A stretch of DNA of 64,000 bases from a plasmid: NCBI RefSeq assembly GCF_056712565.1, contig NZ_JBWXXM010000004.1; one strand, written 5' to 3'. The notes under the pieces are model-generated. The model saw only the letters and a program-made list of their open reading frames with translations, made no database searches and was not told the DNA's origin. Shown piece after piece: positions 10,995 through 60,813 of the stretch. Positions within the stretch are counted from its first letter, which is position 1; each line of letters starts with the position of its first letter. Position numbers and translations under genes: made by a program.

Positions 10995-11020
10995 GCCCAT
11001 CTTCGGGTGGGCGTTTTTTT
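10995..11020 (+). terminator. Intrinsic terminator with UUCG tetraloop
   Basis: GCCCATC-TTCG-GGTGGGC followed by G and T7. Confidence 0.8.
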
Positions 11021-11485: not shown

Positions 11486-11560
11486 GATGGTGTAGCTCAG
11501 CGGTAGAGCAGTTGGCTGTTAACCAACTGGTCGGTGGTTCGAATCCATCCACCATCGCCA
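11486..11560 (+). tRNA. tRNA-Asn (GUU), CCA encoded
   Basis: Hand-folded cloverleaf: acceptor GATGGTG/CACCATC, anticodon loop CTGTTAA, T-loop TTCGAAT. Confidence 0.9.
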
Positions 11561-11562
11561 AT

Positions 11563-11638
11563 GCCGGTTTAGCTCAGTTGGTAGAGCGCCTGCCTTGTAA
11601 GCAGGATGTCAGCGGTTCGAGTCCGTTAACCGGCACCA
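11563..11638 (+). tRNA. tRNA-Thr (UGU), CCA encoded
   Basis: Acceptor GCCGGTT/AACCGGC, anticodon loop CTTGTAA, T-loop TTCGAGT. It starts 2 nt after tRNA-Asn. Confidence 0.9.
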
Positions 11639-13274: not shown

Positions 13275-13350
13275 GGCCCTTTAGCTCAGTGGTTAGAGCT
13301 GGCGACTCATAATCGCACGGTCACCGGTTCAAGTCCGGTAGGGGCCACCA
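13275..13350 (+). tRNA. tRNA with CAU anticodon (Ile2/lysidine-type or Met), CCA encoded
   Basis: Acceptor GGCCCTT/AGGGGCC, loop CTCATAA, T-loop TTCAAGT. The P1 counterpart is annotated tRNA-Ile. Confidence 0.85.
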
Positions 13351-38155: not shown

Positions 38156-38608
38156 ATGTTACTTAACTGGCAGGGACGCCACTTCATGGAAATAAATCAC
38201 TCACGAATAACATCGTACGAGATTGCGGATTACATGATCCGCACTAAATCTCTTCTATCAGCGAAAGAACTCGCAGCAATTCTTGAAAAGGAATACCCGC
38301 ATCTGGATGTCGATAAGCGCGATGTTTATCTGCGCTTAAAGGCTATCGCTGTGTCTAAGTATTCGTCTGTTTTGATTGATGACAGTACACGCCCACGTAG
38401 ATTTCAGATCCACTCTCTGAATCCTGAATTCTTTCGCCGCAGCCGCGCTCCGCGCCGGTTTGATGAAAAACTCCAGAACGAACTCTATATGACGCAGGAC
38501 GAAAAGGAACGCCGGGAGCACCAGCCTTGGGTGATGGCGCGTCAACTTTTCAATAAGGTGGTCCGTCAGCACCGTCATTACGGTAATGCCACATCCGCAC
38601 GTATCTGA
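38156..38608 (+). CDS. lpa: Late promoter activator
   Basis: 150 aa. The position between pdcB and pacA, and the C1-operator-controlled promoter, match P1 gene 10/lpa. Confidence 0.75.
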   Translation: MLLNWQGRHFMEINHSRITSYEIADYMIRTKSLLSAKELAAILEKEYPHLDVDKRDVYLRLKAIAVSKYSSVLIDDSTRPRRFQIHSLNPEFFRRSRAPRRFDEKLQNELYMTQDEKERREHQPWVMARQLFNKVVRQHRHYGNATSARI

Positions 38609-38694
38609 TTGATTGCTTGCCCGTTCCGGGCCTTTTGACATGTGACTTTCGTTACCCTCGCGTCAAAAAGAGTTTTATACGAAAGGAAGCATAA

Positions 38695-39887
38695 GTGACC
38701 TGGGACGATCACAAGAAGAATTTTGCTCGCCTGGCGCGAGATGGTGGTTACACCATCGCACAATATGCCGCCGAGTTTAATCTCAACCCAAACACCGCAC
38801 GTCGTTATCTCCGTGCATTCAAAGAAGACACCGGAACAGCGGACAGCCGTAAGCCAAATAAGCCTGTCAGAAAACCACTAAAAAGCATGATCATTGATCA
38901 CGCTAATGATCAACGTGCAGGTGATCACATTGTGGCTGAAATGGCTGAAAAACAAAGAGTTAATGCTGTTGTCAGTGCCGCAGTCGAGAACGCGAAGCGC
39001 CAGAATAAGCGCATAAATGATCGTTCTGATGATCATGACGTGATCACCCGCGCCCACCGGACCTTACGTGATCGCCTGGAACGCGACACCCTGGATGATG
39101 ATGGTGAACGCTTTGAATTCGAAGCTGGCGATTACCTGATAGATAACGTTGAAGCGCGGAAGGCCGCGCGCGCTATGTTGCGTCGGTCCGGGGCTGATGT
39201 TCTGGAAACCACTCTTCTGGAAAAGTCTCTCTCTCATCTCCTTATGCTGGAGAACGCCAGGGATACGTGTATTCGCTTGGTTCAGGAAATGCGCGATCAG
39301 CAAAAAGACGATGATGAAGGAACTCCGCCTGAATACCGTATCGCGAGCATGCTAAACAGCTGTTCCGCGCAGATAAGCAGCCTGATCAACACCATTTACA
39401 GCATCCGGAATAACTATCGAAAAGAAAGCCGGGAGGCGGAAAAGCACGCTTTGTCTATGGGGCAAGCTGGCATTGTAAGCTGGCATACGAACGAAAGCGT
39501 GAAAACAACTGGTCAGTGCTGGAGGCAGCTGAATTCATCGAGGCGCATGGAGGGAAAGTACCGCCCCTGATGCTGGAGCAAATCAAAGCCGATCTGCGTG
39601 CTCCTAAGACCAATACCGATGATGAGGAAAGGCAAACAGCCGTCGGTGGCCCTTCTCTTGAAGATCTGGACAAAGTTGCGCGAGAACGGGCCGCCAACCG
39701 CCGCGCCGATGCCGCATTGTGGATTGAGCAGCGTAGGGAAGAAATCGCCGATATCGTTGATACAGGCGGTTATGGAGATGTTGATACTGAAGGTGTATCA
39801 AACGACCCATGGCTGGAACAAGACCTGGACGAAGACGAGGAGGAAGACGAAGAAGTTACCCGCAAGCTATACGGGGATGATGATTAA
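38695..39887 (+). pseudogene. pacA: Terminase small subunit / pac-cleavage protein PacA, reading frame broken near 39477
   Basis: 1193 nt is not a multiple of 3. Frame 1 (291 aa) ends at 39570, while the -1 frame is open from 39414 to 39887 and ends TAATG-coupled to pacB. The joined length would be 397 aa. Confidence 0.7.
38888..39046. other. pac: pac packaging site (4 + 3 TGATCA/G hexamers with Dam sites)
   Basis: TGATCA at 38888, 38895, 38907 and 38922. TGATCG at 39018, and TGATCA at 39030 and 39041. Confidence 0.88.
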
Positions 39888-41371
39888 TGGCCAGAAGTTG
39901 CGTAACGGATCCACGTTGGCGCGAGCTGGTGGCGCTATATCGTTATGACTGGATTGCTGCCGCTGATGTTTTGTTCGGCAAAACACCTACCTGGCAGCAG
40001 GATCTGATTATTGAGTCTGTGCAGGAACAGGGTAGCAAGACATCTGTTTCGTCTGGTCACGGTACCGGGAAATCAGACATGACTTCTATCATGATCATGT
40101 TGTTCATAATCATGTATCCAGGTGCCCGTGCCATTATCGTTGCGAACAAAATTCAGCAGGTAATGACCGGTATATTCAAGTACATCAAGATAAACTGGGC
40201 TACTGCCACCAGCCGTTTCCCATGGCTTGCTGATTATTTTGTTCTGACAGAAACCGCTTTCTATGAGATTACTGGTAAAGGTGTATGGACTGTAGTACCG
40301 AAGGGCTTTCGTCTGGGAAGTGAAGAAGCTCTCGCCGGTGAACACGCAGATCATCTTCTGTATATTATCGATGAAGCCTCCGGTGTCAGTGATAGAGCTT
40401 TCGGTATCATCACCGGTGCTCTTACCGGACAGGATAACCGCATCTTATTGCTGTCACAGCCTACACGCCCAAGCGGCTATTTCTACGATACACACCATAA
40501 ACTGGCCAAGCGTCCTGGTAACCCTGATGGCGTTTATACGGCGATCACGCTTAACAGTGAGGAATCACCGTTGGTAACGCCAGCATTTATCAAAATGAAG
40601 CTGGCGGAGTACGGCGGGCGTGATAACCCTATGTACATGATTAAGGTACGCGGCCTATTCCCTAAATCACAGGATGGCTTCCTTCTTGGACGTGATGAGG
40701 TTGAACGTGCGACGCGGCGGAAAGTCAAGATTGCCAAAGGATGGGGCTGGCTTGCATGTGTGGACGTTGCTGGTGGTACGGGACGGGATAAGTCCGTTAT
40801 CAATATCATGATGGTGTCCGGCCAGAGAAATAAACGCCGTGTAATCAACTATCGAATGCTGGAATACACAGACGTTACAGAAACGCAGCTTGCCGCCAAA
40901 ATTTTCGCAGAATGTAATCCTGAGCGATTCCCAAATATCACCATAGCGATAGACGGCGATGGGCTGGGTAAAGCAACGGCGGATCTGATGTACGAGTATT
41001 ATGGTATTACCGTACAGCGTATACGCTGGGGTAAAAAGATGCATAGCCGTGAAGATAAGAGCCTGTACTTTGATAAACGTGCTTATGCCAACGTTCAAGC
41101 CGCAGAGGCCGTAAAATCTGGTCGTATGAGACTGGATAAGGGTAATGAAACTATTGAGGAAGCGTCGAAAATCCCTGTAGGGATTAACTCCGCAGGTCAA
41201 TGGAAGGTGATGAGTAAGGAGGATATGAAGAAAAAACTCAACCTGCACTCACCAGACCATTGGGATACATATTGTTTCGCTATGCTGGCGGATTATGTTC
41301 CCCAGGATGAAGTGCTTAGCGTCGAAGACGAAGCGCAGGTTGATGAAGCTCTGGCATGGCTTAATGAATAA
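39887..41371 (+). CDS. pacB: Terminase large subunit PacB
   Basis: 494 aa with a Walker A-like SSGHGTGKS and a terminase-like nuclease C-terminal half. Confidence 0.88.
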
Positions 41372-44432: not shown

Positions 44433-44449
44433 CCGTTCATTTGCGCTTG

Positions 44450-44466
44450 ATTGCTCTAATTATTTG
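44450..44466 (+). promoter_or_regulatory. C1 operator
   Basis: ATTGCTCTAATTATTTG, downstream of the cre stop codon. Confidence 0.65.
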
Positions 44467-44482
44467 ATATTTATGGTGACGC

Positions 44483-44794
44483 ATGCGGAAGGATTTCAAA
44501 ATAGACGGAAAATATGTGGTGCTGTCTGTAAGCTCTCAAATTCAGTCACCATCTGTCATTGTCACCGTAAAGTTGAGCGATAGGATGCCTGATATCGACT
44601 CGATATCTGTTGCGTTCCCCGTTAAAAGCATGCGGAGTGCTGAACATTTTGTGATGAATGCAACGGAGGAGGAAGCGCGGCGCGGGCTTACTAGAGTGAT
44701 GGTGGAATTTGGCGAACTCCTGGGTAAGGTAAACAATGCCCTTTCAATCAGTTCAGCAAGATCCAAAGCGTTAACAGCTTCCATGATGAAATAA
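44483..44794 (+). CDS. cra: Cre-associated small protein
   Basis: 103 aa; assigned by synteny. Confidence 0.55.
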   Translation: MRKDFKIDGKYVVLSVSSQIQSPSVIVTVKLSDRMPDIDSISVAFPVKSMRSAEHFVMNATEEEARRGLTRVMVEFGELLGKVNNALSISSARSKALTASMMK

Positions 44795-45791: not shown

Positions 45792-46433
45792 ATGGATAAG
45801 AAAATATGCGTTGTTTCGATGAGCGTCGGCAAACCGGCGTCAATGACTGCTGCATGGATCAACAATGAGCTAATAATGGCTGAGCGGACCAGCTACCCTG
45901 AACGCCGCCGCGATATGGAACTCCAGCTGCTGCGCGAATTGCGAGAAAAAGAGGAAAAGGGTTTTATCGTGCTGGTGGAAGAGGAAAACAGCTTTATTAC
46001 TGGTCGAGTTGGCCAGCGTGTAAGGTTGCGCGATCCCTTCATGAACGGCAGGCCGGTACTAATTGAGGCAATGCAGATTTATAAGGAGCTGGAACGCCAG
46101 AAAGCAATCAAGTTACCGCGCAAGGAATCCGGCAAATACATTCTCCACCAAAGCATCTTCGATTCCGAACACGATAAAAAAGGCGATGAGTTTTTCAACA
46201 TCAACTGGAGCGAAATAACGACAGAGCATGTTCTGACGTTGTTATGCTGCTTCGCAACAGAATACAACAACGTGGTAAGCGCAGACTACATCAGGGCAAT
46301 GGCTGGAGAAGTTGAGGCCCGCCAAGAACCATCGTTACTAAGTCCACTGATTAACATAATTCTGGGCACCCAGATACTGGAACAAAAAAAAGTGCCGAAA
46401 GGGGTATTAACAGGCAAGCATAATTATTTTTAA
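45792..46433 (+). CDS. mat: Particle maturation protein
   Basis: ATG at 45792 follows TAGGGGG; the ORF track extends upstream to 45645. Assigned by synteny after ref. Confidence 0.65.
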   Translation: MDKKICVVSMSVGKPASMTAAWINNELIMAERTSYPERRRDMELQLLRELREKEEKGFIVLVEEENSFITGRVGQRVRLRDPFMNGRPVLIEAMQIYKELERQKAIKLPRKESGKYILHQSIFDSEHDKKGDEFFNINWSEITTEHVLTLLCCFATEYNNVVSADYIRAMAGEVEARQEPSLLSPLINIILGTQILEQKKVPKGVLTGKHNYF

Positions 46434-46526
46434 CAATTACATACAGTAATTTTGTGGTTACATTCTCCATTGATTTTCTAACCGCTTTATCATTAGATGT
46501 AACAGCATGTAAATCATTTAAAATGG

Positions 46527-47663
46527 ATGAAAGCAATGGGGAATGAAGTTTATCAAAGTCAAAAATGCAAGTTGAAATATTCAAAATCTCAAATTGATAG
46601 GGCTGCTCAATTGATAAGGCACGGGTGTAGTGACGAAGAAAGGCAGCAATCTATTGAAATGATACAAAATTTCCGTGAGCTGCATCTTTATCCATTAATG
46701 CTCATGAAAAATCATTTAGCAAGAGCAGCTGCTAAGGTTGACAAGGACAAAAAGATTCTCGTTGCAAGAAGACTTAAGCGACTTTCTACCATAATAGATA
46801 AACTAGAGCGTCCTAGTCTTGATGGAGGCAGAACTAGCAATGCAATTAAATTAACACGGATGCAGGACGTTGGCGGATGTAGGGCCATTGTCAGAAACTT
46901 AGACCAGTTGATACAGCTAAAGGAACGTCTTTTAAAAAGCAAATCTGTTCATAGGATTGTTAAAGAGTATGATTATCTTACTCCCAAAGACAGCGGCTAT
47001 AGTGGAATCCACCTTGCATACAGTTGCTTCGATCAGAAAGAGGATCAATATCCGTGGCGAAAAACAAAGATTGAGATACAGTTAAGAACTCAATTGCAGC
47101 ATGCTTGGGCTACCAGCCTTGAAATAATTGATACCCTTGAAGGTATCAAGCTGAAAACTTCAAGTGAAGGGCATCCAGAATGGAGACGATTTTTCTATCT
47201 AGCCGGATGTCTTGTAGCGCACGACGAAAAAGCCTGCACTCTTGATGAGCTAGTTGTATCTCAGTATGAAGGCGAGCTTAAAGAGCTGGAACGGACTTTA
47301 TCTGTACGGAGGAAACTAAGCACATACACCATCGCCTTAAATTTAACTTCTGACGCGAATTTGATTAAGAAGTTGCCAAAAAATCATAAGGGGCATTACT
47401 TAGTAACAATGAGAAATGCAGAAAACAAGCCCAATACAAAAAACAAAAAAATGTTCCTAGTGTCTGTTCGCGCATTTAAAACAAAAGAAGCAGATGAAGC
47501 CCTTGAGGCCTTAAATAAAGACGATTCTAATCCTAATGTATTGATATCTGTTCTCGTTGCTACAGATAACATTAAGTCACTAAAAAAAGCCTACCCCAAC
47601 TATTTTGGCTCAACAAACCAGTTTACAAAATTCTTAGATAAGCATCTTCGTAACGAAGGATAG
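46527..47663 (+). CDS. Fused RelA/SpoT-homologue toxin-antitoxin (toxSAS, CapRel-type anti-phage defence protein)
   Basis: RSH synthetase motifs are present in order: RRLKRLSTIIDKL, DVGGCRAIV, SGYSGIHLAY and EIQLRTQLQHAWATSLE. A C-terminal region of about 125 aa has no catalytic motifs. The gene is AT-rich and monocistronic. Confidence 0.8.
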   Translation: MKAMGNEVYQSQKCKLKYSKSQIDRAAQLIRHGCSDEERQQSIEMIQNFRELHLYPLMLMKNHLARAAAKVDKDKKILVARRLKRLSTIIDKLERPSLDGGRTSNAIKLTRMQDVGGCRAIVRNLDQLIQLKERLLKSKSVHRIVKEYDYLTPKDSGYSGIHLAYSCFDQKEDQYPWRKTKIEIQLRTQLQHAWATSLEIIDTLEGIKLKTSSEGHPEWRRFFYLAGCLVAHDEKACTLDELVVSQYEGELKELERTLSVRRKLSTYTIALNLTSDANLIKKLPKNHKGHYLVTMRNAENKPNTKNKKMFLVSVRAFKTKEADEALEALNKDDSNPNVLISVLVATDNIKSLKKAYPNYFGSTNQFTKFLDKHLRNEG

Positions 47664-47670
47664 TTGCTTA

Positions 47671-47697
47671 ATTTTGCCCGGTAATTCCGGGCAAAAT
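47671..47697. terminator. Bidirectional terminator between the RSH gene and lxc
   Basis: ATTTTGCCCGG-TAATT-CCGGGCAAAAT. Confidence 0.75.
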
Positions 47698-47699
47698 TG

Positions 47700-47948
47700 T
47701 CAATCTGCATTCAGGAGCAATGCGTTATCTATGATGATCTGCTCCCATTCTTCGAATGCCCGATCGCGGACGCCCTGGGGAACACTGTTAGTTTTGAAAT
47801 CGACCACCGTCCGCCATTTCCCGTCCGGGCGGTACATGCGCAGAGCTTTACTTCCCCCTTCCCTGCGCACCTCAACGTTATGCTTATCAGCAAACTCTTG
47901 TAATGCTCGTAGCGTCCCATGCTTTACTGTGTAGTATCGCTTTTTCAA
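47700..47948 (-). CDS. lxc: C1 co-repressor Lxc (Bof)
   Basis: 82 aa, the size and position of P1 Lxc/Bof. Confidence 0.75.
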   Translation of the reverse strand: MKKRYYTVKHGTLRALQEFADKHNVEVRREGGSKALRMYRPDGKWRTVVDFKTNSVPQGVRDRAFEEWEQIIIDNALLLNAD

Positions 47949-55207: not shown

Positions 55208-55252
55208 TAGTGTTAAATTCCGTTCAAACACGATGTGAATTATTCTAATTAA

Positions 55253-60506: not shown

Positions 60507-60813
60507 AATATACGATCTGGTCTACATGATCACCAAAATCATCGTCGTCGTCCTCATCGCCACCATCTACTGCTGGCCAATCAACAAACCAGCCAGCGTA
60601 AAGATGCAGCGTTCGGAGAACATCACTTGCGGGAGCATCAAGGGTGTTAACGAATCCCATATAGCTATTGGGATTTGCTCCAGCTATGGCTTCAGCGATC
60701 ATGTCCTCGGTAATGTCACCGGAGATAATGCTTAAACGCCCGGAAACTTCTTCATTATCATCAAATTCGATAATGGCATCTCCGCCTAATGGCGCTGCGA
60801 TTTTAATCTGCAT
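60505..60813 (-). CDS. Acidic small protein at the end of the darA-ddrB operon
   Basis: 102 aa with a GGDEDDDDDFGD tail. It overlaps the ddrB stop. Confidence 0.55.
   Translation of the reverse strand: MQIKIAAPLGGDAIIEFDDNEEVSGRLSIISGDITEDMIAEAIAGANPNSYMGFVNTLDAPASDVLRTLHLYAGWFVDWPAVDGGDEDDDDDFGDHVDQIVY

Follow-up and report, generated by a model that had tools for sequence, protein, structure and literature searches.

A private single-base deletion disrupts the recorded pacA frame of a P1-type plasmid prophage

In bacteriophage P1, pacA is an essential DNA-packaging gene, whose product is pacase subunit A, a subunit of the small-terminase type. Its knockdown by CRISPRi lowers the EOP to less than 1.2e-7 (PMC10695390), and a P1 pacA knockout makes proheads and tails but no virions (PMC9024508). 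The pac site has been described as a 161-bp element with seven hexamers (PMC10028697). The plasmid DNA analysed here, a stretch of 64,000 nucleotides from contig NZ_JBWXXM010000004.1 (hereafter the window), belongs to a plasmid prophage of the P1 type (phiW39/SJ46-like), and the late operon within it follows the P1-type order lpa–pacA–pacB. The P1 landmarks follow the NC_005856 annotation and are collected, together with the other features of the locus, in Table 1. The start of pacA is identical to that of P1, as is the −35 box of PpacB, a predicted sigma-70 promoter. In the −10 box of this predicted promoter (39771–39776), the window reads TATGGA and P1 reads TATGGT.

Table 1. Features of the lpa–pacA–pacB region, in positions of the window
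Feature	Position	Strand	Description
lpa (late promoter activator, gp10)	38156–38608	+	Intact 150-aa ORF adjoining pacA upstream; length and position as in P1 and plasmid annotations
LPpac late promoter	38640–38658	+	Identity to the P1 annotation at 19/19 bases, via alignment
pacA ORF as written, truncated	38695–39570	+	GTG start, 291 aa: 261 native codons, 30 out-of-frame codons, TGA at 39568–39570
pac site in the 5′ part of pacA	38888–39046		4 + 3 TGATC[A/G] hexamers, intact, upstream of the lesion (hexamer scan)
IHF site within pac	38950–38962		Mapped from the P1 annotation, sequence identical
Cleavage positions within pac	38970–38979		Mapped from the P1 annotation, sequence identical
Deletion junction	39476–39477	+	GTT|AAG (Val261–Lys262) in relatives, GT|AAG in the window; one T gone (alignments)
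pacA 3′ part, displaced	39477–39887	+	Native codons 262–397 and TAA, out of frame with the start codon (translation)
G_GGA_AAG heptamer	39552–39558	+	In register with the out-of-frame reading, 76 nt downstream of the lesion and 10 nt before the out-of-frame stop
TGATG	39568–39572	+	Out-of-frame stop over the native Met293 codon; possible termination–reinitiation point
TAATG overlap, pacA stop and pacB start	39885–39889	+	Same layout in the P1 and phiW39 annotations
pacB (second pacase subunit; 'large terminase' in relatives)	39887–41371	+	Intact 494-aa ORF; 1485 nt as in phiW39, P1 and plasmids

As written, pacA is a disrupted allele, and an uninterrupted frame of 397 codons is absent. The gene spans 1193 nt on the plus strand (38695–39887), a length that is not divisible by three. 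Residues 1–261 of the truncated ORF share 100% identity with the intact PacA of relatives, and an alternative frame, open from 39414, encodes the native protein from 39477 to the TAA at 39885–39887. The window was aligned by MAFFT with phiW39 (AY751748.1), P1 (NC_005856.1), three plasmids and vB_EcoM-813R1. This alignment contains one gap in the pacA of the window, at 39475/39476, where every aligned relative carries a T. At the junction (39476/39477), the relatives exhibit ATTGTTAAG and the window exhibits ATTGTAAG; the same alignment sets GGCATTGTTAAGCTGG in the relatives against GGCATTGTAAGCTGG in the window. Megablast searches of phage and plasmid records returned near-identical matches that exceeded the query by one base. 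The deletion is a deterministic difference in sequence, for which chance is not at issue. When the T is put back, pacA measures 1194 nt and encodes a 397-aa protein identical to the PacA of phiW39 (AAV84925.1). The repaired protein differs from P1 PacA at 17 of its 397 residues and matches PHROG 1711 ('terminase') over residues 1–397 with E = 1.4e-204.

An earlier interpretation made from the letters of the window (the sequence-only reading) had proposed a 1-nt deletion at this place in pacA, with frame 0 stopping at 39570, and both the 1193-nt span and the single-gap alignment bear it out; alignment to P1 pacA, a check that it had suggested, confirms a single missing T. Its joining of the two frames into a protein of 261 + 136 = 397 aa was likewise right, the repaired protein being that of phiW39. 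The identity of the lost base has to be corrected. It was taken to be an A of GTAAAG; the relatives carry GTT AAG, so the missing base is the T of the Val261 codon. The join at the protein level is still correct, since either codon, GTA or GTT, specifies Val.

The Pfam families HTH_23, HTH_28 and HTH_24 match PacA at residues 7–48, all below their gathering scores (the best scores 21.6 bits against 24.6 bits), and no relative of PacA in the PDB was detectable by sequence. The truncated product retains this N-terminal HTH-like region, as judged from weak, sub-threshold Pfam matches, and loses the 136 C-terminal residues, which include an acidic tail.

The deletion is private to the window sequence. 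Public records were compared with a 70-nt stretch that has the deletion at its centre, so that only an exact carrier would score 100%. The best matches reached 98.6%, which corresponds to one gap, and no exact carrier was present among the matching records, which numbered 567 for plasmids, 555 for complete E. coli genomes and 20 for phages. The exact 34-mer across the junction was absent from the contigs of GTDB-representative genomes, from IMG/VR and from the JGI metagenome contigs. Finally, the gene-position collection held no exact protein for the 291-aa product, whether with a V or an M start.

The quality of the surrounding sequence was assessed by comparing the window with three plasmid relatives: pS159-2 (NZ_OY757102.1) and pMTY10828_p0111 (NZ_CP134391.1), which are the nearest whole relatives at about 99.1% identity, and AP026465. 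Relative to the nearest plasmids, the window exhibits four further 1-nt deletions that shorten homopolymers, at 11020, 11504 (tRNA-Asn), 55219 and 58870, from which an error-prone assembly was suspected. This suspicion was rejected, because the window versions are ordinary lineage variants found in other plasmids: those at 11020, 11504 and 58870 occur in 279, 181 and 12 plasmids, respectively (at least 99% identity), and that at 55219 is also present in AP026465. There are 24 long homopolymers in the window, and their only length differences from all three relatives are variants that are found elsewhere too. Across the 64 kb, no single-base indel other than the T of pacA is private. Throughout the 22 kb between 18 and 40 kb, the window departs from all three relatives at that T alone, with zero substitutions, and over 38438–40689 (2.2 kb) the window is the same as phiW39 except for the missing T. 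No Dam or Dcm motif was found at the deletion site.

The D-arm of the tRNA-Asn gene (11486–11560) contains GGTAG in the window, against GGTTAG in each of the three nearest plasmids, the site lying at about 11503–11504. The shorter form is present in 181 plasmid records (at least 99% identity), so two length alleles of the tRNA circulate among P1-like elements. ARAGORN still calls the gene. Across 11486–11638 and 13275–13350, ARAGORN calls three phage-borne tRNAs: Asn-GTT, Thr-TGT and a tRNA with a CAT anticodon that is called Met.

We also looked for decay beyond pacA by comparing stop-to-stop ORFs of at least 150 aa from the three relatives with the window. About 60 such ORFs are present at full length with at least 90% identity, and among the real genes only pacA is split. 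The remaining partial matches reflect the edge of the window, ORFs on the antisense strand or differences that precede the true starts. The lesion is therefore an isolated, recent change and does not mark the element as decayed or domesticated.

Identity to phiW39, which is 100% at 38438–40689, becomes mosaic from 40690 onward. Just downstream of cre, dense substitutions and small indels relative to phiW39 and the three plasmids fill 44435–44545 and continue to about 45630. The drop from full to mosaic identity suggests recombination boundaries in the immC/cre/ref region. At 46379–47701, the region corresponding to a gene of the relatives with a RelA/SpoT domain ((p)ppGpp synthetase-like), the window is near pS159-2 and pMTY10828, and strong divergence with numerous indels separates it from AP026465; this divergence suggests distinct alleles of a RelA/SpoT-domain cargo gene. 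At 60541–60552, in the homologue of WP_001165933.1, one TCG/GTC trinucleotide unit has been lost in frame relative to all three relatives.

A broken pacA, real or artefactual, is an ordinary occurrence among P1-like elements. In p853EC1 (NZ_CP040920.1), a G is missing at the equivalent of window position 39811 and no pacA protein is listed. In vB_EcoM-813R1 (ON470617.2), one base is missing at 39260 and one at 39826, and the gene is annotated as two ORFs; in vB_EcoM-673R5 (ON470615.2), pacA is annotated as Pac1 and Pac2. A split pacA, or one of abnormal length, is also found in the P1-like backbones of NZ_JBTZPE010000003.1 and NZ_OY754365.1. None of these five other records has the 39476 deletion. 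According to their source preprint, 813R1 and 673R5 are PHASTER-predicted prophages from Illumina (HiSeq)/SPAdes assemblies and not demonstrated phages. Both of the 813R1 pacA deletions fall in CCWGG (Dcm) motifs; a nanopore/Dcm error was considered for them and dropped, because the preprint reports Illumina HiSeq and SPAdes. A base rate was obtained from an even sample of complete-genome E. coli records (60 of 561). The pacA span was exactly 1194 nt in 56 of the 60 and abnormal in the other four, with lengths of 1192 nt and 1180 nt in one record each and a truncated gene in two. PHROG 23417 ('unknown function', 105 aa) matches PacA residues 293–397 end to end with E = 1.6e-66 (window 39570–39884). 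This match indicates that the C-terminal fragment from Met293 has been called in other phage annotations, and PHROG 23417 is probably made up of pieces of pacA genes that are frameshifted in phage records.

Whether the two frames of the window might still be joined during translation turns on the short stretch in which they overlap. The sequence-only reading had found no slippery heptamer at the frame switch and considered programmed frameshifting unlikely. No heptamer is present at the switch itself, as it stated; what escaped it is a canonical −1 heptamer in the overlap zone, G_GGA_AAG, which we take to be of the lambda G/GT type. A −1 slip at this heptamer would re-enter the native frame. 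In shuffled sequences, the probability of an in-register heptamer arising by chance was 0.215 for any type and 0.029 for X_XXA_AAG. No stimulatory RNA structure was found after the heptamer (MFE of −15.4 kcal/mol versus a shuffle mean of −18.2 kcal/mol, z = 0.85), and a conserved two-frame pacA layout was found in none of about 1,140 relatives, made up of plasmid (567), E. coli genome (555) and phage (20) records. Nor did the records compared include a demonstrated functional phage with a two-ORF arrangement, an outcome that would have spoken against a break, and the split pacA genes found elsewhere are split at other positions. Programmed −1 frameshifting is therefore unsupported and judged unlikely, as in the sequence-only reading: the heptamer is present, yet it is accompanied by neither conservation nor a downstream structure. 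A weaker version of the idea is that the lesion is real but leaky and not a true null, owing to a −1 slip at G_GGA_AAG or to reinitiation at TGATG. By the first route, the slip would restore the frame and give a near-full-length PacA with 26 scrambled residues. By the second, ribosomes would stop at the TGA and restart at the overlapping ATG, giving a 105-aa C-terminal fragment and restoring the coupling to pacB. The heptamer does lie in the register of the out-of-frame reading, 10 nt ahead of its stop, TGATG does set that stop on the native Met293, and exactly this 105-aa fragment has recurrently been called as an ORF (PHROG 23417). However, both the heptamer and TGATG pre-exist, out of register, in the intact aligned relatives, which is why we judge them coincidental, and the chance of such a heptamer is of the order of 0.03–0.2. 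In addition to the missing stimulatory fold, GGAGG lies 16 nt from the ATG, a poor spacing; a scrambled or split PacA would in addition have to work; and PHROG 23417 may simply gather fragments of other broken or mis-sequenced pacA genes. We consider a leaky lesion very unlikely, and it is similarly improbable that the frameshifted pacA is non-null in the sense that the heptamer and TGATG supply enough PacA function and pacB coupling for low-level packaging. Were it so, pacA would represent a natural frameshift mutation rescued by fortuitous recoding, or a split subunit of the small-terminase type.

The two options left by the sequence-only reading, an error or a genuine pseudogene, are the same two that remain after this analysis. 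We give an even chance to the deletion being a genuine, very recent, isolate-specific loss of function in an otherwise intact prophage; its presence in the DNA, and not just in the assembly, is what we infer. A consensus error of sequencing or assembly, in which case the DNA truly reads GTTAAG, the 397-aa PacA is intact and the prophage is fully functional, is a serious alternative whose probability we place somewhat below one half, so that the lean towards a real, very recent null is slight. An error is suggested by the nature of the change, a 1-nt deletion in a TT dinucleotide that occurs in no other record searched and whose truncated product has no entry in the gene-position collection. 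Apart from this base, the 2.2 kb around it match a phage record of the Sanger era (phiW39) exactly, and within 22 kb the window departs from all three relatives just once, by an indel and not by a substitution, which counts against a real mutation. Spontaneous mutations are mostly substitutions, and a lone indel of this kind fits the spectrum of errors somewhat better than that of spontaneous mutation. An error would likewise turn up in a single sequence, as this lesion does, and the sporadic pacA indels in the database records of relatives may be errors too. By contrast, no second private single-base indel exists in the 64 kb despite the 24 long homopolymers, where platform errors concentrate, and current platforms do not typically err at a 2-mer that lies outside a Dam or Dcm motif. 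We lean towards a real mutation because the window contains no other sign of indel error and the sequence around the site is not one in which errors typically arise, and the independent pacA lesions in other records (p853EC1; 4 of 60 sampled E. coli) lend it support. The sequence-only reading had also envisaged a plasmid-locked, domesticated element, that is, a prophage kept for its cargo in which the loss of pacA is one step of a long-standing, progressive decay. P1 derivatives without lytic functions do exist, such as pJIE250-3 (PMC6906374), and pacA is truncated in about 2% of E. coli records. However, the lesion is private to the window sequence, pacA alone is split among about 60 large ORFs (within 64 kb of an element of about 95 kb, a size as in the relatives), zero substitutions surround the lesion relative to phiW39, and lpa, LPpac, pac and pacB are all intact. 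The claim was an over-reach, and we regard domestication as the least probable of the explanations, with hardly any weight.

If the deletion is a real and recent null mutation, translation from the GTG at 38695 would give 261 native residues and 30 nonsense residues before the stop at 39570, and the C-terminal 136 residues would be lost. By analogy with P1 knockouts, which are not truncations at residue 261, the induced element would still be expected to replicate, to make proheads and tails, and to lyse; on that same analogy with knockouts rather than with a truncation at residue 261, it would be expected neither to cut pac nor to fill heads. Ribosomes would stop 317 nt before pacB, and with them the TAATG overlap and the presumed pacA–pacB coupling would be lost. 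Because pac is intact, rescue by a co-resident or superinfecting P1-like phage, or by pacA supplied in trans, should work.

Either way the lesion is an ordinary one, of little importance outside this record. Should the deletion be real, this P1-like plasmid cannot spread alone as a phage, the intact pac keeps packaging by a helper possible, and both bear on how readily the cargo of the plasmid moves. Should it be an error, one base of the record has to be corrected, and the two pacA ORFs, together with PHROG-type 'families' like that of the 105-aa fragment from the PacA C terminus, are best treated by annotators as artefacts of a broken pacA. The rough base rate of 4 abnormal pacA genes in 60 records suggests that gene content alone is no sufficient ground for taking the P1-like phage-plasmids in databases to be inducible.

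The closest described systems are phiW39 (AY751748.1, AAV84925.1) and P1 (NC_005856, YP_006575.1), with which the window shares the order lpa–pacA–pacB–c1, the GTG start, the TAATG junction and a pac that has seven hexamers, an IHF site and cleavage positions inside pacA. It departs from both in the one T missing at 39476/39477, which leaves an ORF of 291 aa (261 native) in place of 397. The P1 pacA nulls (the knockout in PMC9024508; the amber mutants and CRISPRi in PMC10695390) are alike in the loss of PacA and in the expected outcome of proheads and tails without infectious particles. Those nulls are deletions, amber mutations or knockdowns with a tested phenotype, whereas the window contains a natural or apparent frameshift at codon 261/262 that would leave 261 N-terminal residues in place, among them the HTH-like region. 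The plasmid pJIE250-3 resembles it as a P1-type plasmid unable to complete the phage cycle (PMC6906374). In contrast to pJIE250-3, which is described as being without lytic functions (PMC6906374), the window, in which no other decay is seen, carries a single point lesion.
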